A stretch of DNA of 31,333 nt from Candidatus Micrarchaeota archaeon (GCA_026396375.1 JAPLWW010000045.1:1-31333); one strand, 5' to 3'. Positions 17,236-27,634 are shown, counted from the first letter of the stretch. Notes: a model not told the origin generated them from the sequence alone. A program made the numbers and translations.

Positions 17236-18798
17236 ATGACAAACGGAATGGGAAGGGATTCAAGGAAAGAGCTTGAAATCTACAAAAAGAAAAAATACAT
17301 CACCCAGGCAAAGATGATTGACATAAGCACTGGGAACAAAATAGTGGTTTTGAATGACAAGGAGGCGCTTGTCAACGACATTTTCGAGGGAGAAAGAGTG
17401 GAGATAGACATAAAGGGCAAAATCCACATCGTGCTTGTCAACCTTTCGCACAGCCTTGTCAAGGAGGGGGAGATAGGGATCTATGCAGACATTTCAAAGG
17501 ACTTTGGGATAGCAGAAGGGGACATAATAGAGGTCAGTCACATCCAGACCCCGCAAAGCCTTGAGACAATAATCAAGAAGATAAACGGCCAGCCGACTAA
17601 CAAGGACGAGATCCAGTCAGTCATCAGCGATCTCATGGCAAACAGGCTTTCTGAATCTGAGATATCGGCATGGATGACATCATCTTTCATAAGGGGCCTT
17701 AACGATGAGGAGATAGTTTCGCTTACTGAGGCAATGGTCGGCTCAGGCCAATTGCTGAACCTTGGGAAATCCCCTATCGTGGACAAGCACTGCGTTGGAG
17801 GAGTCTCTGGAAACAGGACAACCATGGTATTGGTTCCAATAATCGCCTCAGCAGGGATTTACATACCCAAATCATCCTCAAGGGCAATAACATCCCCTTC
17901 AGGGACAGCTGATACCATGGAGATACTTGCCCCTGTCAACATTGAGATGGACGAGCTCAGGGAACTTGTGAAAAAGACCTTTGGCGCAATTGTCTGGGGA
18001 GGCGGAATCAACATCGCGCCTGCTGATGACAAGATGATAAAATTAAGGAGGCCATTAAGATTGGATCCAAAAGGGATACTCCTGGCAAGCATCCTTGCAA
18101 AGAAGAAGGCAGTTGGCTCCCAATATGTCCTTATTGATATTCCTATTGGCATGAGCGCCAAGATAGGCGACATGGCTACTGCCCAGGACCTTGCAAAGGA
18201 CTTCAAGACAATCGGCCAAAAATTGGGAATGAACATCGGCTGTGTTGTTACAAACGGCTCTGAGCCGATAGGGAACGGAATGGGCCCTGTGCTGGAGGCA
18301 AAGGATGTCCTAAGCGTGCTTCATGGAGAAGGCCCAACCGACCTTAAGGAAAAGAGCTTATTGCTGGCCGGAAAGATCTTCGAGCTTTGCGGAAAAGTCG
18401 GGAAAGACGAGGGATATGACGTTGCCAAGCATTTCCTTGAGTCTGGAAAGGCGCTTGACAAGATGAAGGAGATAATCGCGGCCCAGGGCGGGAACCCCAA
18501 TGTAAAGATAGACGACCTTCCGACCGCAAAATACAGGTATTCCGTCAAGGCTATTGCAGACGGAAAAATAGAGCACATAGACAACAAGAGCATATCAAGG
18601 ATAGCAAGGGCGACAGGGGCTCCTATAGACAAGGCTGCGGGGGTTTACCTCTTCAAGTCCAAAGGAGACCTGGTGAAGGCAGGAGATATCATCTTTGACT
18701 TACATGCCGAATCGGAGGCAAACATCGATTTCGCGCTTAAGATGGCTGAGGAATTCAACCCCATAAACATGGGCAAGATGCTGATAGACGAGTTCTGA
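17236..18798 (+). CDS. deoA: AMP phosphorylase (archaeal thymidine phosphorylase family)
   Basis: N-terminal beta-barrel extension, then DKHCVGGVSGNRTT, IPKSSSRAITSPSGTADTME, VWGGG.N.APADD, ASILAKKKAVG, IGNGMGPVLEAKD, GAPIDKAAGVY. Confidence 0.93.
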   Translation: MTNGMGRDSRKELEIYKKKKYITQAKMIDISTGNKIVVLNDKEALVNDIFEGERVEIDIKGKIHIVLVNLSHSLVKEGEIGIYADISKDFGIAEGDIIEVSHIQTPQSLETIIKKINGQPTNKDEIQSVISDLMANRLSESEISAWMTSSFIRGLNDEEIVSLTEAMVGSGQLLNLGKSPIVDKHCVGGVSGNRTTMVLVPIIASAGIYIPKSSSRAITSPSGTADTMEILAPVNIEMDELRELVKKTFGAIVWGGGINIAPADDKMIKLRRPLRLDPKGILLASILAKKKAVGSQYVLIDIPIGMSAKIGDMATAQDLAKDFKTIGQKLGMNIGCVVTNGSEPIGNGMGPVLEAKDVLSVLHGEGPTDLKEKSLLLAGKIFELCGKVGKDEGYDVAKHFLESGKALDKMKEIIAAQGGNPNVKIDDLPTAKYRYSVKAIADGKIEHIDNKSISRIARATGAPIDKAAGVYLFKSKGDLVKAGDIIFDLHAESEANIDFALKMAEEFNPINMGKMLIDEF

Positions 18799-18886
18799 AT
18801 TTTCTTTTTTACATTTCAAAAACCACAACAATACAGTCATGTATAAAAACAGCTTATTTCCAATTGTTTACATGGCCGTAATTTCC

Positions 18887-19879
18887 ATGTTTGGAAAGTC
18901 TTCCTGGAAACAGTGCAGGATACTTCTTCCAGAGCCTGAAGACGAAAGGATCCTTCTGGCTTCAAGGATGGCAAAGGACAGGGGCTTCGCAGTTCCTATT
19001 CTTGTAGGAAATAAAAAATCAATAGAGAAAAGCGCAAAAAGTCTAAAGATAGATCTTTCAGACATTGAAATAATAGACACATCAAAAGGCATTGGCAAAA
19101 GATATGCCGATGAGTATTCTAAGATAAGGAAGGTTCCAAAGCAACTTGCAGAAAGGATGCTTGAAAACCCATTGTTTTTGTCTGCGCTTATCTTAAGGAT
19201 AGAGGAGGCAGATGCCATGATCGCAGGCGCGGTCTTCACCTCTGCCGATGTCATAACCGCTTCGGAAGGGATAATAGGGCTGAGGAAAGGTGTTTCAGTT
19301 CCATCCAGCTTTTTCATAATGGAAATACCGGGCTATCAAGGAGGCGAGAAATCCGGCAACAATGGCTTGCTGCTTTTTGCAGACTCCTCTGTAAACATTG
19401 ATCCAACTGCAGAACAACTTGCAGATGTTGCAATAACAACGGCAAACACCGCAAAGGAGCTGATGGGATGGATTCCAAGAGTAGCCTTGCTTTCATTTTC
19501 CACAAAAGGCAGCGCAATCCATCCAAAGGCAGACAAAATAATCAATGCTACAAAAATAGCAAACAAAAAGGCCCCCAACCTTTTCATAGATGGAGAATTA
19601 CAGGGGGATTCTGCGCTTGTTGAAAAGACCGCTATCAAGAAAATGAAAGGGAAGATTGGCAATGTCGCAGGCAGGGCCAATGTGCTGATATTCCCGGATC
19701 TGGATTCAGGCAACATCTCCTATAAATTAGTTCAAACACTGGCAGGCGCGAACGCATATGGTCCAATATTACAAGGATTCAACAAGCCAGTGAGCGACCT
19801 TTCAAGGGGCGCGAAGCCTGAAGACATAGTCGGGACAATTGCCATACTCAGCACATGGGCAAAGAGGATGAAAAGATGA
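18887..19879 (+). CDS. pta: Phosphate acetyltransferase (short Pta type); start uncertain (18839, 18872 or 18887)
   Basis: ILLPEPEDERIL, SSFFIM, FADSSVNIDPTAEQLA, PRVALLSFSTKGSA, DGELQGDSAL, ANVLIFPDLDSGNISYKL, YGPILQGFNKPVSDLSRG. Confidence 0.92.
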   Translation: MFGKSSWKQCRILLPEPEDERILLASRMAKDRGFAVPILVGNKKSIEKSAKSLKIDLSDIEIIDTSKGIGKRYADEYSKIRKVPKQLAERMLENPLFLSALILRIEEADAMIAGAVFTSADVITASEGIIGLRKGVSVPSSFFIMEIPGYQGGEKSGNNGLLLFADSSVNIDPTAEQLADVAITTANTAKELMGWIPRVALLSFSTKGSAIHPKADKIINATKIANKKAPNLFIDGELQGDSALVEKTAIKKMKGKIGNVAGRANVLIFPDLDSGNISYKLVQTLAGANAYGPILQGFNKPVSDLSRGAKPEDIVGTIAILSTWAKRMKR

Positions 19880-21063
19880 AAAAAATACTTATGCTCAACT
19901 GCGGAAGCTCATCAATAAAATACAGGCTTTTCGACTCTGCATTCAGGGAGATCCTCAGCGGAAAGGTTGAAAGGATAGGCGAAAAGGAGTCTGAGATTGT
20001 TCACAGCAAAGGCAGTAGGGTTTACAGGGCAAAGGTGAAATCCAATAACCACAAGGAGGCAATAGCATTGATGATAAGGATGCTCCATGACAAAGAATGG
20101 GGCGGCATACGCAATGTTGCAGAGATATCTGTAATAGGGCACCGCGCGGTCCATGGAGGGCAGATGGCAAAGACATCGCTTGTCTCAGGTGCGGCGCTGG
20201 ATTATTTGAAATCATTTGAGATGCTCGCGCCTCTCCATAATCCCCATAATATAGAGGGCATGAAGGAGATGAAGAAGGCAATGCCGAATGTGCCCCAGGT
20301 CATGATTTTTGACACAGCGTTCCACCAGACAATGCCAAGAAAGGCATACATGTACGGCTTGCCGTACAGTTTCTTTGACAAGTACGCAGTAAGGAGGTAC
20401 GGCTTCCATGGCACCTCGCATAAGTACGTTTCGCTGAGGGCCGCTGAAATGCTGAGAATGAAAAAGCCAAATCTCATAACATGCCATCTTGGCGCAGGCT
20501 CAAGCATAACCGCAATTAAGGACGGAAAATCAATTGACACAAGCATGGGCATGACTCCATTGGAGGGAGTGATGATGGGAACAAGGACAGGGGACATTGA
20601 CCCGTCCATAGTGCAATACTTGGTGAATAAATACGGCTTTGGCTATGATGATCTGTTTGACATCATGAACAACAAAAGCGGCTTGCTTGGCATATCAGGG
20701 ACAAGCAAGGACATCAGGATAATAGAGGGAAAGGCGAAAAAGGGCAACGAGAGGTGCGAGCTTGCGCTTGAGATGTTTTCTTATAGAGTATCAAAATACA
20801 TCGGCGCATATGCCGTTGCCTTAGGCAGGGTTGACGCGATAGTGTTCACTGCAGGAATAGGGGAGAATTCCCCAAGCATGAGGAAAAGGATATGCTCAAA
20901 CCTTGGCATAATCGGCGCAAGGCTTGATCCAAGGAAGAATACAAAAGCCATTGGCAAGGAAGCTGATGTAAGCGCAAAAGGATCAAAGATAAGGATCCTT
21001 GTTATACCTACGGATGAGGAGCTGATGATGGCAAAGGAGGCTGCTGCGGCAATAGGAAAATAG
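19876..21063 (+). CDS. ackA: Acetate kinase
   Basis: LNCGSSSIKY, GHRAVHGG, APLHNP, FDTAFHQT, RRYGFHGTSH, DTSMGMTPLEG, FTAGIGENS, IPTDEE. ATG overlaps the pta stop. Confidence 0.96.
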   Translation: MKKILMLNCGSSSIKYRLFDSAFREILSGKVERIGEKESEIVHSKGSRVYRAKVKSNNHKEAIALMIRMLHDKEWGGIRNVAEISVIGHRAVHGGQMAKTSLVSGAALDYLKSFEMLAPLHNPHNIEGMKEMKKAMPNVPQVMIFDTAFHQTMPRKAYMYGLPYSFFDKYAVRRYGFHGTSHKYVSLRAAEMLRMKKPNLITCHLGAGSSITAIKDGKSIDTSMGMTPLEGVMMGTRTGDIDPSIVQYLVNKYGFGYDDLFDIMNNKSGLLGISGTSKDIRIIEGKAKKGNERCELALEMFSYRVSKYIGAYAVALGRVDAIVFTAGIGENSPSMRKRICSNLGIIGARLDPRKNTKAIGKEADVSAKGSKIRILVIPTDEELMMAKEAAAAIGK

Positions 21064-21071
21064 TGATCAAA

Positions 21072-21446
21072 ATGGATGTGAAAGGCATAGGCATAGACAT
21101 TGTTGACATCAAAAAGCTGGAGAAGATACTGAAGGGAAAAGCAGGCAAGGCCTTTATCAAGAATACTTTCACAAATCATGAGATCGCATGCGCGAAAGGC
21201 GGGATAAATATCTACAAGCTTGCAACGTCCTTTGCTGCAAAGGAGGCAGTTTACAAGGCCTTTGGCACAGGATGGATCGAGGGAAAAGATGTTGAAGTAT
21301 TAAGGACAAAGGAAGAAGGCACTCCCAGCATAAGGCTTCATGGAGAAATAGAAAAGATGGCGAAAAAAAGGAAGATAAGAAAAGTGCTTGTAAGCTTATC
21401 ATTTACGGAAAGCAATGCAATCGCGATGGCGGTGCTTGTCTCATGA
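21072..21446 (+). CDS. acpS: Holo-[acyl-carrier-protein] synthase (AcpS-type 4'-phosphopantetheinyl transferase)
   Basis: KGIGIDIVDI...FT..E...FAAKEAVYKAFGTG...EV...GTP.I.L.G...VSLS.T...AIAMAVL. Alternative start is GTG 21063. Confidence 0.9.
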   Translation: MDVKGIGIDIVDIKKLEKILKGKAGKAFIKNTFTNHEIACAKGGINIYKLATSFAAKEAVYKAFGTGWIEGKDVEVLRTKEEGTPSIRLHGEIEKMAKKRKIRKVLVSLSFTESNAIAMAVLVS

Positions 21447-21475
21447 AATAAATACAAGACAAATAAAAAAGTAAA
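21447..21475 (-). terminator. T-rich tract between the convergent acpS and ACP genes
   Basis: The minus strand reads TTTACTTTTTTATTTGTCTTGTATTTATT right after the ACP stop, resembling archaeal oligo-T terminators. Confidence 0.35.
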
Positions 21476-21736
21476 TTAATTTTTTAATTTCCTGGCTTTC
21501 TTGTACATGTAGTTAATGGCTTCATTTATCGTTTTGTTCTGCCTTACGTCCCTCTGCGGAACCCTCAAGCCGAATTCCATCTCCAGGGCAGCCAAAAGCT
21601 CGACTATGTTCATGGACTTGGCATGGAGGTCGTCGACGAAACTCGTGCTTTCCTTGAGCTTCGTCTCCTTGACATTGAAGACATCTGCAACGACCTTCAT
21701 TACCTTTTTTGCCACTTCCTTGCGGTCTATCCTCAT
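21476..21736 (-). CDS. Acyl carrier protein (atypical: DDLHAKSMNIVEL)
   Basis: 86 aa with ACP layout: KV..VVADVF.V....L...TSFVDDL-x3-S41-M.IVELL.ALE.EFGL.VP......KTI.EAI.Y. Its ATG abuts the DUF35 stop. Confidence 0.88.
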   Translation of the reverse strand: MRIDRKEVAKKVMKVVADVFNVKETKLKESTSFVDDLHAKSMNIVELLAALEMEFGLRVPQRDVRQNKTINEAINYMYKKARKLKN

Positions 21737-22135
21737 TTACTTCTCCACCTTGAATATCACTATGTCCAAGTCTGCCATCCTCTTTATCTTGGCCTTTACT
21801 TTCATAGGCATCTTGGCATTCTGAGCCTCAAGCGCCTCGACATTGGAAACGTCAAGCCCCTCTATACAGGTGAAGAAGCACGGCCCCTCTTTGAGCTCCA
21901 CCGCCCCATAGGCATAGGGATGATATTTTGCGAACTTCATGGGCGGAAGGTTTCCGCTTGAGAAGAATTGCAGTTTTCCTTCCCCGCTTATCAGCTTCCA
22001 TTCCATATCGTGCGCTCCGCACTTCATGCACCCTGCCTTAGGGGGAAATGTGAAATGCCCGCACTTCCTGCATTTTACGCCATATATCTTTCCATTCGAA
22101 ACAGCTTTGTAGAATCTTGTCACCATGCTTTCCAT
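21737..22135 (-). CDS. Zn-ribbon + OB-fold protein (DUF35/ChsH2/PhlB family)
   Basis: GKIYGVKCRKCGHFTFPPKAGCMKCG...WKLISGEGKL...PYAYGAVELKEG. ATG 22135 follows a GGTGA RBS overlapping the thiolase stop. Confidence 0.92.
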   Translation of the reverse strand: MESMVTRFYKAVSNGKIYGVKCRKCGHFTFPPKAGCMKCGAHDMEWKLISGEGKLQFFSSGNLPPMKFAKYHPYAYGAVELKEGPCFFTCIEGLDVSNVEALEAQNAKMPMKVKAKIKRMADLDIVIFKVEK

Positions 22136-22140
22136 GTTTT

Positions 22141-23421
22141 TCACCTCTTCAATACTGTCACTGCGGAATGCATTCCGTATCCGTGGTTGTGTACAACCGA
22201 CACTTCAGGGGCATCCTTAATCTGCCTTCCCTTGGCTTCCCCCCTCATCTGCTTGACCGCTTCATAGAAGTCAGCGCCCGCAGATGCGGAAAATGCGTGC
22301 CCCTTTCCATGCTTCCCCCCTGATGTGTTCATCGGCTTGTCGCCGTCATACCTTGTCCTTCCCTCCATGACCGCCTTCCATGCCTCGCCTTTCTTGAAGT
22401 ATCCGCATATCTCGGATTCTATCAAGTGGTATATCTGCATGCAGTCATGCACGCTAAGGTAATCTATGTCCTTTGCGGTTATGCCTGCCATCTTCATTGC
22501 GGTTTCAAAGGTAGTATTGTCTATCGCCCAGTCAGTAGGATCTTTTCCATACCACGGGTAGTTGCTTGCGCTCCAGTGGAATCCCTCTATGCTTATGGGC
22601 TCCTTGTCGCAGAACTGCTTTGCTTGGCTTTCGGAGCTGATTATGTAGGCAGATGCCCCATCAACAGTATTAAGCACGCTCCTTGCCCTTGCCGGCCATG
22701 CCAGGAAGGGGTTCTTCCTGCTTGTCCAGAATTCCGCATCATCCTTGAATCCAGCCTTTTTCGCGTCCTGCTCAAAGGTGGTCTGCACGTATGCCTTCTT
22801 GTTCCTTGAGGCATGCAATTTCACTGTCCTATGTATCTCTCGCATTGCCTCATCCATCTTGCTCATCTTGATATGGTGCTTTTTCGCATATCCAAGCGTG
22901 GGCAATCCCCCATATGCAGTTGCCACATCATATGCATGATGATATCCATAGGCCTGGTCAACGCCGAAGTCAGTCCAGTACCACAGCGTGGTCGGGTCAG
23001 TCGGCTTCCTTATCGTGGGATTGTCAGTCGCTGCTGAGGACAGTATATCGCATCCTATGACCAGCACATTCCTGAATTTCCCTGATGCGATGCTCATTGC
23101 TGCAAGCCCTGCCCCAGTATTTGTAGTTGAGCAAGCTGTCGCAAAGTGAATGGCCGGCTTCAGGTGCAACCCAAGCCAGTCTGCCATCTGAGTATTGTGT
23201 GAATAAAGATGGGAGCTGTGGCTGAGCATGCTTCCAATGTAGAATGCGTCAATATCTTTAGGATCTATTCCCGAGTCATCCATCGCCTCAAAGGCGGCAG
23301 TGCAAACAAGCTCCTGGAAGCCAAGCCCCTTTATTTCAGGAGTAGTTAAAACGCTTCCGAATTTCGTACATCCAACTCCGGTTATCACCGGCTTTTCCTT
23401 CAGGTTTCCTACATATGCCAT
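22141..23421 (-). CDS. Thiolase-family protein (SCP2/archaeal/PhlC-like type)
   Basis: ITGVGCTKFG, catalytic ATAC97STT, DGASAYI, SVHDC, NTSGG..GKGH, VKQMRGEAKGRQI, HNHGYG. GGTGA RBS upstream. Confidence 0.92.
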   Translation of the reverse strand: MAYVGNLKEKPVITGVGCTKFGSVLTTPEIKGLGFQELVCTAAFEAMDDSGIDPKDIDAFYIGSMLSHSSHLYSHNTQMADWLGLHLKPAIHFATACSTTNTGAGLAAMSIASGKFRNVLVIGCDILSSAATDNPTIRKPTDPTTLWYWTDFGVDQAYGYHHAYDVATAYGGLPTLGYAKKHHIKMSKMDEAMREIHRTVKLHASRNKKAYVQTTFEQDAKKAGFKDDAEFWTSRKNPFLAWPARARSVLNTVDGASAYIISSESQAKQFCDKEPISIEGFHWSASNYPWYGKDPTDWAIDNTTFETAMKMAGITAKDIDYLSVHDCMQIYHLIESEICGYFKKGEAWKAVMEGRTRYDGDKPMNTSGGKHGKGHAFSASAGADFYEAVKQMRGEAKGRQIKDAPEVSVVHNHGYGMHSAVTVLKR

Positions 23422-23748: not shown

Positions 23749-24819
23749 TCATTGGGAATCCTTATGGGTATGCCTGGGGTTGCGCATGTAAGGCTCATCC
23801 CTTTTGGTAACCAAACCAGCTTCAAGAAGGGCCAGATATGAGCTGTTTCTGTAATGGTGCGAGATAAGGCCGCTGAGACTGTTGGAATAGAAATCCCTCT
23901 TTATCACGTCTCTAGGATTTTTCTTCAGCTTTTCAACGAGCCGTTTGATTGCCTCAATTCGGTTTTCCCTTGATTCAAAGAATCCATTAGGGGTTTTATG
24001 CATCTTCCAGGGCCTGAGCCTATATCCCGCTTCCTTCAATGCGAGGACCGCTTCTTTGCGGATATCGGCTCCCTGGCTCCATTTTGCATAGGTAAGCTTC
24101 GCCTTTCCCTCTTCAATCGGGATGTACCAGCCGTGCCGGATCCAGAAATCCGCCATTGAGGCTTGGCTGCCATTGCTGGAGGCATTGACAGGAACGATGC
24201 ATTTGAAATTATCACGGATGCGTGCGCGGTGGCGCAGGTAAGGCCTGCCCGCGCTTGCCACAAAACCGGCTTCAAGAAGGGCTTCGTAGGGACTGCTGCG
24301 GTAGTGCTGAAGCAAGCCGCTGAGGCGGTTTGAAATGAAATCTTTTTTTTCTATGTCCTGGGGATCTTTCTTCAGTCTTTCAACTAGCCAGCGGATCGCT
24401 GAAACGCGGTTGTCCTTTGATTCGTAGAAACCGCGGGGGGCCCAGGACATCTCCCATGGCTTGTGGTCATATCCTGCTTCCTTCAATGCGCCGTATGGGC
24501 TGTCTTCATAATGCCTCCCAAGAAGGCCGCCGAGGCGGTTCAAATGGAAATCGTACTTGTCGATATCCCTGGGATCCTTCCTGAGGACTTCCTCAACAAG
24601 GAAGCGGACCGCCGCAATGCGCGCTTCAGGATCTCCTTTCCATTTTCCAGTCCTGAGTTTCTTGCTACCGTCCTTCATCTTCCTGTACCAGCCCTGCCCT
24701 ATCCAGAAATCATCCATCGTGGCTTTTTTTGTTTTAGGTGAGGATTCAACCAATGGTTCCCTTGCCTTGGCATTCTGCTTCATTAGGGTTTGGCCAGGCC
24801 TGGACGCAAGGAGATTCAT
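23749..24819 (-). CDS. Repeat protein with ~70-aa units (DUF4046-like), two modules
   Basis: Two M(D/A)DFWIxxGWY headers, each followed by NR..A(I/V)R.LVE..KKDP.D....DF..NRL.GLL..HY..SPY.AL.EAG units. The ATG overlaps the upstream paralog's stop. Confidence 0.75.
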   Translation of the reverse strand: MNLLASRPGQTLMKQNAKAREPLVESSPKTKKATMDDFWIGQGWYRKMKDGSKKLRTGKWKGDPEARIAAVRFLVEEVLRKDPRDIDKYDFHLNRLGGLLGRHYEDSPYGALKEAGYDHKPWEMSWAPRGFYESKDNRVSAIRWLVERLKKDPQDIEKKDFISNRLSGLLQHYRSSPYEALLEAGFVASAGRPYLRHRARIRDNFKCIVPVNASSNGSQASMADFWIRHGWYIPIEEGKAKLTYAKWSQGADIRKEAVLALKEAGYRLRPWKMHKTPNGFFESRENRIEAIKRLVEKLKKNPRDVIKRDFYSNSLSGLISHHYRNSSYLALLEAGLVTKRDEPYMRNPRHTHKDSQ

Positions 24820-25649
24820 TGGCCATCACCGCGCGTGCGGGCCCTGCTGCGCATGCGCTTTTCGTCTGCAGCAGCCACAAGCCCCGATTCCCTCAGCGCT
24901 TCATATGGGCTGTCATTGTAGTAATTGGTGAGCAAGCCGCAGAGGCGGTTTGAATAGAAATCATTCTTGGTCATGTCGGAAGCCTTTTTCCTGAGCTTCT
25001 TGACGAGACAGGTTATCGCTTCTATGCGGTTTTTCTTTGAATGATACAAACCATTGGGAGCCTTGAGCATCTCCCAGGGATGCATCCTGTAGCCCGCTTC
25101 CCTGAGGGCATCATACGAGCTGCCGTTATAATAATTCAAAAGGAGGCCAAATAGGCGGTTTGAACGGAAATCACCATAGGTAATGTCGCGGGGATCTTTG
25201 CCGATTTTCCGGACAAGCCATCTTACTGCCTCTATGCGGTTTTTCTTTTTTTCGTAGAAACTCTTCGGGGTGCCAGACATTTCCCACGGATGGAAATCAT
25301 AGCCTGCTTCCCTGAGGGCATCGTATGGGCTGTCATTGTAATACCTGCTCATCAGGCCAGAGAGGCGGTTTGAGTAGAAATCACCGTAGATCATGTCGCG
25401 GGGATCCTTTTTCAGCACTTCTTCCGCAAGGAAGCGTATTGCATCCCTGCGCACATTTGGGCTGTCTTCCCATTTGCCTTTGGTTAGGATGAATCCCCCA
25501 TTCCCTGTTCTCCTATACCAGCCGTGCTGTATCCAGAAATCATCCATCGTGCATTTGAGCCTGGATTCAGGATCCTGCTTGAACTTTCCAAACTGCCTGT
25601 CCTTCGGATGAACAAGCATAGGAGATTTCCTTTTCAGTTGGAGGTTCAT
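24816..25649 (-). CDS. Repeat protein with three ~70-aa units (DUF4046-like)
   Basis: MDDFWIQHGWY header plus three units ending YYNDSPYDALREAGY..HPWEM. TTTTTAAA box about 25 nt upstream on the minus strand. Confidence 0.75.
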   Translation of the reverse strand: MNLQLKRKSPMLVHPKDRQFGKFKQDPESRLKCTMDDFWIQHGWYRRTGNGGFILTKGKWEDSPNVRRDAIRFLAEEVLKKDPRDMIYGDFYSNRLSGLMSRYYNDSPYDALREAGYDFHPWEMSGTPKSFYEKKKNRIEAVRWLVRKIGKDPRDITYGDFRSNRLFGLLLNYYNGSSYDALREAGYRMHPWEMLKAPNGLYHSKKNRIEAITCLVKKLRKKASDMTKNDFYSNRLCGLLTNYYNDSPYEALRESGLVAAADEKRMRSRARTRGDGQ

Positions 25650-26389: not shown

Positions 26390-27634
26390 TCACCTTGTGC
26401 TCCATTTCCTTTCGCTTCCCATTATCTCCTTGATCAAGCTTGAGACCCAAATGTACGGCCAAAGGTAGCCGAAAAGGAACAAATATGAAAATACTTCCGG
26501 GAATTCCTTTATAACATTGAGTTTTTTCTCGTTTGCGCGCTCCCTTATGCTGTTGACCATGTAGACAAGCCAAAGGAAAGTCACGCTGACCATCGATGCG
26601 GTTATTATCAGCAAGGGGTCTGAAAGGAACCCAAGCGCGAAATTCCCGAAGCCTATCCTGTCCATCCACATCATCTGGGGCTTGAAAAAGCTGTAGATTA
26701 TCGAGGAAATCATTATGATGGATGGTATGAACACCATGATATCCGTCATCATCCCGAAATAAAGGAAATCCCCGTAGTCTGTGCTGAAAAGGTCCTTGTG
26801 CTTTATCCTGTTCCAGATCCCTCCCCTCACCCATCTTATCCTTTGCTTGATAAGCATGTTCAGGTTTGGCATTGCCGAGGTGTACACAAAAGCGTCAAGC
26901 GCGCACCTTATCTTGTGCCCTGCCTTCTGGAGCTTTAGGGCTACTTCCTGGTCTTCTGTAAGGCTGTTGATGTCAAAGCCCCCTATCTTCTTCATATCCT
27001 CTGTCTTGAACATGCTCAGGCCTCCGGGAGTGACATAGATGGAATCAACCGCCATCATCAGCCTTCTCAGGAAAAGTATCGAGTCATACTCTATTGCCTG
27101 GACCTTCTCGACAACGATCTAAGGATCCCTCACCCTAATGTCTGCGGTGACTGCAGAGACATTCTCCTCCTCAAAATAATAGCTGAGCTTCCTGAAGGCA
27201 TCCCTATCAACGACAGAATCTGAGTCCAGGGTTGCGACCAGCTCTCCATTTGCCACGAATATCCCCGTGTTCTTGGTATCCGAGGTTCCTGAGTTCTTCT
27301 CCTTTTTTATGGCCTTGAAGCCGTATTTCCCGTATTCCTTCGCTATCTCATGGCTGTTGTCCTTTGATCCGTCATCAACAATCAGCACTTCTAGCTTTTC
27401 CTTCGGATAGCTGCAGTTGCGTATTGAATCAAGGGTTTTCCTCAATGCCTCCCCTTCGTTGTAAACTGGGATGACTATAGATAATGTAGGAAGGTCCTTG
27501 TCCTCAAGCTCCTTTGGCTTGAAATGGATTATGCTGTGCTTCAATGCAAAAAGGACAACAAATGTAATTGTAAGATATAGCAGTATGAATGCCGATATGT
27601 ATAATACGATTGTTATTATCTCCATCTTCTCCAA
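26390..27634 (-). pseudogene. Processive GT2 glycosyltransferase (cellulose synthase/PgaC/IcaA-like) split by one in-frame TAG at 27119-27121
   Basis: VIPVYNE, VDDGSKD and LDSDS lie before the stop; TPG, TED and QRIRW plus TM helices lie after it. The frame is unchanged across RVRDP*IVVEKVQAIEY. Confidence 0.85.

Follow-up and report, generated by a model that had tools for sequence, protein, structure and literature searches.

Six Genes in Two Convergent Strings

The window analysed here, a stretch of 31,333 nucleotides from Candidatus Micrarchaeota archaeon (GCA_026396375.1, JAPLWW010000045.1), contains six adjacent genes in which a phosphotransacetylase (Pta) and acetate kinase (AckA) pair stands next to a thiolase, a DUF35 protein, an acyl carrier protein (ACP) and a holo-ACP synthase (AcpS). 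The sequence originates from a freshwater-sediment metagenome, and the genome comprises 0.97 Mb on 122 contigs and is 78% complete. The contig is archaeal by content, with genes for aIF2-alpha, the exosome proteins Rrp4/41/42, SBDS, PAC2 and prefoldin in the window. The genome is of the Micrarchaeota type (DPANN), and close homologues of the ACP are labelled Micrarchaeota or Bilamarchaeaceae in their sources.

The six genes form two convergent, tightly packed strings, pta-ackA-acpS on the plus strand and thiolase-DUF35-ACP on the minus strand. The first string starts with the gene for a Pta-type phosphotransacylase of an ACP-linked clade (18839..19879; 346 aa; PTA_PTB, PF01515, 321 bits). Its stop codon TGA (19877-19879) overlaps the ATG at 19876 in an ATGA. 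The longest open reading frame of ackA begins at 19855, and the ATGA start yields an N-terminus that matches those of solved AckAs, so that ackA was placed at 19876..21063 (395 aa; PF00871, 457 bits). The ackA stop codon TAG (21061-21063) overlaps a GTG at 21063, the first position of acpS (21063..21446; about 124-127 aa; ACPS, PF01648, 47 bits); the next ATG is found at 21074. A spacer of 29 bases (21447..21475), in which oligo-T was read on both strands, separates the two strings. On the minus strand, the gene for a thiolase-like enzyme of the archaeal/SCP2 type (22141..23421; 426 aa; Thiolase_N, PF00108, and Thiolase_C_1, PF22691) ends with a TGA within the sequence GAGGTGA, 7 bases ahead of the ATG at 22135. 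The latter is the likely start of the DUF35 gene (21737..22144) and gives a protein of 132 aa with a zinc ribbon and an OB fold (zf-ChsH2, PF12172, and OB_ChsH2_C, PF01796). The TAA of the DUF35 gene directly abuts the ATG of the ACP gene (TAAATG), which encodes a dedicated ACP of 86 aa with a net charge of +7 (21476..21736; PP-binding, PF00550, 35 bits).

The first-pass annotation had described two tightly coupled convergent operons, with acpS directly after ackA, the ATGA overlap of pta and ackA, an overlap of the thiolase stop codon with the ribosome-binding site of DUF35, and the abutment of DUF35 and ACP, and all of this was confirmed by gene calls, Pfam searches and reading of the sequence; all six genes are real. 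Its statement that genes for fatty acid synthase (FAS) and for 3-hydroxy-3-methylglutaryl-coenzyme A (HMG-CoA) synthase are missing from the locus also held, as none was found within the window. Evidence of expression was not found; the sole sequencing run containing the sequence is the source freshwater-sediment DNA.

The Gene Set Recurs in Five Phyla and Survives Rearrangement

The ACP was searched for in 301 evenly sampled genomes of the phylum and was found in 19 of them. By group, it was present in both genomes of the window genus, in none of the 12 genomes from the rest of the family, in 13 of 65 genomes of another family, and in three singletons. In the 18 other ACP-bearing genomes the remaining five genes adjoin the ACP gene wherever the contig allows. 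Within Micrarchaeota, the cluster was encountered in at least three unrelated flanking contexts, and in one single-contig genome (G239) all six genes are co-directional. AckA, with or without Pta, also occurs without the ACP in 6-7 other genomes of the phylum, and these copies are distant (42-55% identity).

At least six different orders of the six genes were seen, spread over five phyla and two domains. The order in Woesearchaeota is the same as in the window. In Thermoproteota, thiolase-DUF35-acpS-ACP-pta is convergent with ackA, while in Halodesulfurarchaeum ACP-pta-ackA-acpS form one overlapping operon that faces thiolase-DUF35. The Paceibacterota of the Candidate Phyla Radiation (CPR) have thiolase-DUF35-ACP convergent with pta and ackA. 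The ACP gene directly precedes pta in Thermoproteota and at the loci L152 and L153, and in a metagenomic variant one ACP gene is flanked by two thiolase/DUF35 pairs.

A profile search with the ACP against 1.84 billion representatives discriminated poorly, tandem ACPs and ACPs of polyketide synthases (PKS) being dominant. It served only to pick 12 clusters with a Lys or Arg directly before the modified serine ([K/R]-Ser), and two of the ACP clusters, chosen by this motif alone, were looked up blind. The first contained the ACP in the order thiolase-DUF35-ACP-pta, convergent with acpS. In the second (L154:216-2249), an ACP with [K/R]-Ser stands together with a transposase of the IS200 type (Y1_Tnp), acpS and a 67-aa fragment of an acetate kinase; it is a module disrupted by a mobile element.

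Taken together, the arrangement is far beyond chance, and it is strongly supported that the six genes constitute one module. The first-pass annotation had proposed this, and the search of gene neighbourhoods that it had suggested revealed co-occurrence in archaea and in CPR bacteria, so that the notion of six genes that never co-occur elsewhere fails. A remnant was noticed in a genome of the same order (G064), where a 55-residue piece of ackA (157-211) directly adjoins a 50-residue piece of the thiolase (239-288) on the opposite strand (L057:7489-7803); it is a scar of the module, from which everything between was deleted.

ACP, AcpS and AckA

Ser41 of the ACP (codon 21614..21616, minus strand) takes the same place as the DSL serine in alignments with solved ACPs and is the predicted phosphopantetheine attachment site. 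It is invariant in alignment A2, and in the AF2 model (pLDDT 86.9), which has four helices, it opens helix II (41-55). Among solved structures, the ACP is closest to bacterial FAS ACPs (2EHS, E 5e-13). The score is below the curated cut-off for FAS-type ACPs (TIGR00517, 60.8 versus 70.45), and the acidic D-S-L motif is missing: the ACP has DLHAK-S-M in place of DLGAD-S. The [K/R]-Ser hallmark was present in 24 of 26 module ACPs, including a very acidic haloarchaeal one, whereas ACPs beside canonical Ptas have Asp or Glu before the serine. A net-basic ACP as a family trait was ruled out, because net charges range from -16 to +10; only [K/R]-Ser is general.

AcpS scored above its curated cut-off (TIGR00556, 70 versus 45) and by this measure is a standard short holo-ACP synthase. 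Its candidate carrier substrate is the ACP, whose gene lies 29 bases away and is the sole PP-binding gene found in the window genome. AckA likewise scored above the family cut-off (TIGR00016, 463 versus 293). An alignment to 1TUU revealed that Val93, Leu122, Phe179 and Pro232 are all conserved; we take these residues to line the acetate pocket of the M. thermophila enzyme, and they would fit a C2 group. AckA is an ordinary member of its family.

Thiolase and DUF35 Protein

The thiolase has kept the catalytic set of Cys97, His325-Asp326-Cys327 and Gly374-His375, and module types A-C share the motifs ACST, VHDCMQI, GHAF and HNHGYGM (see below for the types). It is far from solved thiolases (best 7YVY, E 1e-35) and from every curated family (177 versus 420 bits), and it is only 28% identical to the canonical thiolase of the same genome. 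PhlC-type acetyltransferases are devoid of the HDxF motif (PMC12960953). Since the module thiolase has kept the corresponding HDC, it looks like a true Claisen enzyme and not like a mere acyl carrier. The DUF35 protein contains the four zinc cysteines (CxxC...CxxC), and its best solved relative is chain E of 6ESQ (E 6e-11), the scaffold of a thiolase complex.

The Pta Belongs to a Separate Clade

The catalytic DLSRG...D of the Pta is intact, with Ser322, Arg323 and Asp329 equivalent to Ser309, Arg310 and Asp316 of the M. thermophila enzyme, and it is invariant across all module Ptas. The window Pta scored under the NCBIfam pta cut-offs (TIGR00651, 296.7 versus 311.2; NF007233, 307.3 versus 310), and on the family tree the module Ptas form a separate clade. 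Several module-type Ptas had a cross-match to PF02504, the PlsX family, in a precomputed domain list.

In P. gingivalis Pta with bound acetyl-CoA, the nucleotide is touched by three side chains only, Arg89 and Lys92, which bind the 3'-phosphate, and Arg135, which binds the beta-phosphate (PMC6461089). Their counterparts in M. thermophila Pta are Arg87, the RKxKG loop and Arg133, respectively. The position of Arg133 is occupied by Thr140 in the window Pta (codon 19256..19258, plus strand; alignment to 1QZT) and by T, A or S in all 21 module Ptas. In addition, the RKxKG loop that follows Arg87 is 3 residues shorter, so that the equivalent of Lys92 is missing. Of these three side chains, which hold the phosphates of the CoA nucleotide, two are therefore missing in the module clade, and the third, Arg87, was kept in the clade of the window (type A) only and is missing from the non-A types.

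The pta Tree Follows the ACP and Not the Overlapping ackA

The pairwise distances of the module genes fell into two blocks, one of thiolase, DUF35 and ACP (Spearman 0.80-0.90) and one of ackA and acpS (0.86). The distances of Pta correlated with those of ACP at 0.80 and with those of ackA at 0.75, compared to 0.59 for ACP versus ackA. The trees of thiolase, DUF35 and ACP were concordant on four types, A to D. At three loci of Micrarchaeota (L046, L048, L049), ackA and acpS fell inside the type-A clade, while pta was non-A like the ACP, thiolase and DUF35 genes of these loci; the ackA of L049 grouped with those of type-A f6 genomes, next to the group in which its own genus-mate is found. Approximately unbiased (AU) tests rejected pta constrained to the topology of ackA (p 8e-4) as well as ackA constrained to that of pta (p 5e-6). 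The pta tree thus tracks the type of ACP, thiolase and DUF35 and not the ackA that pta overlaps. As ackA-acpS separates pta from the ACP operon, this discordance would most simply be read as selection for a Pta that matches its ACP. Of the co-transfer for which per-gene trees had been suggested, the part that stood is the agreement of thiolase, DUF35 and ACP, tracked by pta; the history of ackA and acpS is partly different.

Metabolic Context in the Module Genomes

Ketoacyl synthase and FabD were not found in the window's own genome (78% complete). FabA/Z, MaoC and 3-hydroxyacyl-CoA dehydrogenase were not found in five module genomes, among them a single-contig genome of 1.2 Mb; the relatives searched were 84-93% complete. 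More than 25 loci were inspected, and none contained a reductase or a dehydratase. Together with the single PP-binding gene, these results support the view that no FAS explains the ACP.

On other contigs, the genome has a canonical thiolase, a gene resembling that of HMG-CoA synthase and a further DUF35 gene, and therefore the module does not replace the entry complex of the mevalonate pathway; HMG-CoA synthase was found in no module locus. The genome also contains pyruvate:ferredoxin oxidoreductase (PFOR) and the alpha subunit of ADP-forming acetyl-CoA synthetase (ACD), so that CoA-based acetate/ATP chemistry is already covered. A search of five module genomes for CoaB was negative in four, and four of the five contain the archaeal dephospho-CoA kinase, a pattern which suggests that CoA is obtained by salvage and not by de novo synthesis. 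The first-pass annotation had argued that a route needing only catalytic CoA would be useful to a reduced symbiont. This rationale is weak: the missing CoaB is in its favour, but the CoA enzymes PFOR, ACD alpha, thiolase and HMG-CoA synthase have been kept.

Comparison With Known Systems

The archaeal thiolase/HMG-CoA synthase/DUF35 complex of Methanothermococcus thermolithotrophicus (6ESQ/6ET9) resembles the module in its archaeal/SCP2 thiolase and its DUF35 protein with zinc ribbon and OB fold. 6ESQ is among the best solved matches of both module proteins, and the Cys, HDC and GH motifs are kept. Unlike this complex, the module has no HMG-CoA synthase, and where the complex has CoA-only chemistry, the module comes with ACP, AcpS, Pta and AckA. 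PhlABC/PpATase and the streptococcal MucABC (5M3K, 5MG5) also combine thiolase-like and DUF35 subunits, and they carry the acetyl group on a cysteine with no need for CoA. In contrast to the module, PhlABC has a PhlA-like (HMG-CoA-synthase-like) subunit and is not accompanied by ACP or Pta/AckA; the module thiolase, which retains HDC, matches PhlC less well (E 4e-22). Both subunits of the benzoylsuccinyl-CoA thiolase BbsAB (7PXP), a two-subunit enzyme of thiolase and DUF35 that works in the thiolytic, catabolic direction, match the module (thiolase, E 6e-25; DUF35, E 1.7e-4), but BbsAB uses CoA esters and is without ACP, Pta and AckA. The FAS complex of S. acidocaldarius, composed of ketothiolase, DUF35, short-chain dehydrogenase/reductase and MaoC, is a further case of a DUF35-held thiolase in an archaeon (bioRxiv 10.1101/2024.07.05.601840). 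It is ACP-independent and needs a reductase and a dehydratase, whereas the module has an ACP and no dehydratase was found in the five module genomes.

Canonical Pta-AckA pairs (M. thermophila, 1QZT/2AF3; P. gingivalis, 6IOW/6IOX) belong to the same families and share the catalytic residues and the overlapping gene pair. The module Pta differs in that it falls into a separate clade devoid of Arg133 and the RKxKG loop, scores under the pta cut-off and is always tied to a dedicated ACP. PlsX (acyl-ACP:phosphate acyltransferase) is a homologue of Pta that makes acyl-phosphate from acyl-ACP. The window protein, however, belongs to PTA_PTB and is not a PlsX; the substrates of PlsX are long chains destined for lipid synthesis, and PlsX lacks a kinase partner.

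Other Linkages of Pta, AckA and ACP

A second linkage of Pta, AckA and ACP, without thiolase and DUF35 and with acyltransferases of the left-handed beta-helix (LbH) type, was observed in other lineages. In Bathyarchaeota B24 (L071:7986-12251) the order is pta-ackA-ACP-acpS, with a gene of about 420 codons for an NTP_transf_4 and hexapeptide acyltransferase between ackA and the ACP gene. Two loci contain partial sets around an NTP_transf_4 transferase of ~430 aa, namely pta and ACP (L064:447-3122) or pta, ackA and acpS (L119:7953-11131). At two further loci (L078:3-6001, L104:614-7160), pta-ackA-ACP occurs with a DUF4954 protein (LbH, about 660 aa) beside amino-sugar genes. With the exception of L071, the LbH-linked Ptas are of a "Q-type", in which Gln takes the place of Arg133 and the loop is short. 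At these loci, acetyl-ACP may serve as the donor of acetyl groups, and such a set would only make sense running towards the acetyl carrier.

In Clostridium spp. (L068, L072, L081, L084, L110), a canonical DSL-type ACP is encoded about 2 kb downstream of pta-ackA, presumably as part of a neighbouring fatty-acid (plsX/fab) region. This arrangement could be the evolutionary source of the adjacency of Pta, AckA and ACP.

Genes Next to the Module

An archaeal AMP phosphorylase is encoded directly upstream of pta (17236-18798, plus strand) in the genus of the window only; its N-terminus has a weak, sub-threshold CDC48_N-like match. An attempt to define the module as an insertion by synteny with sister genera was a dead end, as the AMP phosphorylase occurs in unrelated contexts there. 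Just past the thiolase gene, two adjacent repeat-rich open reading frames of 356 and 277 aa (23749-25649, minus strand) gave no significant match to a Pfam family and are absent at the same position in the same-genus relative L006. Further on, an in-frame TAG (27119-27121, minus strand) splits a family-2 glycosyltransferase into two open reading frames of the same frame (27634-27119 and 27058-26390). The gene is a single intact one of 411 aa in L006, and the TAG could reflect a pseudogene, a sequencing error or read-through.

Discussion

The features described above lead us to favour, with somewhat better than even confidence, a functional module around an AcpS-activated ACP that would act as an acetyl shuttle between thiolase/DUF35 and Pta, with AckA linking it to ATP. 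In this scheme, the dedicated ACP would carry an acetyl (short acyl) group as a thioester, and the thiolase/DUF35 complex would load or unload it by Claisen-type chemistry on Cys97. The Pta-type enzyme would interconvert acetyl-ACP and phosphate with acetyl-phosphate and holo-ACP, paralleling PlsX on long acyl-ACPs, and AckA would interconvert acetyl-phosphate and ADP with acetate and ATP. The use of the ACP by Pta and by the thiolase is inferred from sequence. Support for the shuttle comes from the gene set, its strict co-occurrence, the recurrence in rearranged form, the sequence features and the discordance of the trees. It also counts in its favour that CoA enzymes for acetate/ATP and for mevalonate entry are already in the genome, so that the module is redundant with them. 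Further support is seen in the conserved AckA residues, which would fit a C2 group, and in the independent linkages of Pta, AckA and ACP with LbH acyltransferases in other lineages.

Several observations weigh against the shuttle. A control set of 80 Ptas was collected by a homologue search with the Pta alignment; these are mostly canonical bacterial proteins and were not taken as relatives of the module. They have Arg at the Arg133 position in 54 cases, and the residue is missing in the other 26 (Gln 10, Glu 9, Lys 3, Ala 2, Ser 1, Val 1). The family tree revealed that the short loop is common to the module clade and a Q/E-type Pta clade. Because the Q-type clade and 26 of the 80 controls share these features, the missing Arg133 and loop are a clade trait and not a unique loss, and the missing Arg133 is weakened as a unique mark of ACP use. 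Moreover, mutation of Arg89 or Arg135 of P. gingivalis Pta costs only 58% or 21% of activity, respectively (PMC6461089). The groups compared in the AU tests were named only after the first tree had been seen, and within the non-A types the Pta tree mirrors the ACP types inexactly. An internal source of beta-keto compounds was not found, there being no 3-hydroxyacyl-CoA dehydrogenase and no MaoC in the five module genomes, which speaks against the ATP-yielding direction discussed below. Lastly, the LbH-linked loci argue, by analogy, that a trio of Pta, AckA and ACP can run towards acetyl-ACP. The earlier proposal that the ACP replaces CoA at the Pta step thus has indirect backing: the missing Arg133 and RKxKG loop and the tracking of the ACP by the pta tree stood, while the controls without Arg133 and the mutants with lowered activity count against it.

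The alternative that survives best, although we regard it as rather unlikely, is one module with an ordinary CoA-dependent Pta. Acetate would be converted via acetyl-phosphate to acetyl-CoA, which thiolase/DUF35 would use with the ACP only as acceptor, e.g., to form acetoacetyl-ACP for anabolism, and the product would be an entry compound of the mevalonate pathway or a small polyketide-like compound. The intact catalytic residues of Pta, the Arg87 retained in the clade of the window, the remaining activity of the above-mentioned arginine mutants, the full Claisen machinery of the thiolase and an HMG-CoA synthase in the genome as a possible sink are all in line with this explanation. However, it leaves unexplained that pta follows the ACP type and not ackA, and that the ACP gene is part of the pta operon of Halodesulfurarchaeum and the immediate upstream neighbour of pta in Thermoproteota and L152/L153. 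None of the loci examined has a conserved sink gene beside the module, and condensation by thiolase is endergonic unless it is coupled to a further step.

That an ordinary pta-ackA pair for acetate fermentation just happens to neighbour a separate unit of ACP, AcpS, thiolase and DUF35 is improbable and already strongly disfavoured. AckA, with or without Pta, in the 6-7 genomes of the phylum that have no ACP, and the partly different histories of ackA/acpS and thiolase/DUF35/ACP would fit such a coincidence, but the six genes are together in 19 of 19 ACP-bearing genomes where the contig allows, the association survives rearrangement across the five phyla and two domains, and in several orders acpS is, judged by gene order, co-transcribed with ackA and ACP with pta. 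Least probable of all is that ACP and AcpS are a remnant or part of a FAS or PKS, be it a bacterial FAS II or a DUF35-scaffolded FAS of the archaeal kind that uses an ACP; despite the similarity to bacterial FAS ACPs and the DUF35-scaffolded complex known from S. acidocaldarius (bioRxiv 10.1101/2024.07.05.601840), it was rejected, as neither ketoacyl synthase nor FabD was found in the own genome, nor FabA/Z, MaoC or 3-hydroxyacyl-CoA dehydrogenase in the five module genomes, nor any reductase or dehydratase in the more than 25 loci.

The least certain step of the shuttle is its direction. We lean slightly to ATP-yielding cleavage, in which thiolysis of a beta-keto compound would give acetyl-ACP, then acetyl-phosphate and finally ATP, because the module is complete in itself and no sink that would take up an acetoacetyl product is conserved with it. 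Further points in favour of this direction are the exergonic nature of thiolysis, the fermentative metabolism of the hosts and the fact that a single ACP can be fed by two thiolase pairs. The reverse route, in which acetate would be activated to acetyl-ACP for condensation, e.g., feeding HMG-CoA synthase, is nearly as likely, and HMG-CoA synthase could be its sink.

The Pta-AckA pathway is described as rarely used in archaea. Archaea are also described as nearly devoid of ACP and AcpS (bioRxiv 10.1101/2024.07.05.601840), and a survey of DPANN archaea reported Pta and AckA in Pacearchaeota and Woesearchaeota with no mention of a link to an ACP (PMC8204110). Among the publications searched, there was none that joins DUF35, acyl carrier protein and acetate kinase or describes the module, and nothing relevant on acetyl-ACP together with phosphotransacetylase. 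Here, ACP/AcpS and Pta-AckA occur together, locked to thiolase/DUF35, in organisms with minimal genomes. Since the six proteins are small and soluble and Halodesulfurarchaeum has cultured members, the question of their function is directly testable.

Whether the module amounts to a CoA-independent pathway of energy conservation or acetyl activation, with ACP in place of CoA and spread as a mobile cassette in DPANN archaea, CPR bacteria, Thermoproteota and anaerobic haloarchaea, is a more tentative proposition, which we hold at somewhat less than even. If Pta works on acetyl-ACP, the PTA family would gain a new class of substrates and PlsX a short-chain counterpart, C-C bond chemistry would be coupled to ATP in a new way and without the free CoA pool, and the module would be a testable case of a horizontally mobile metabolic cassette common to DPANN archaea and CPR bacteria. 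If the wider proposition is true, it would represent the first physiological role for archaeal ACP/AcpS outside lipid synthesis.

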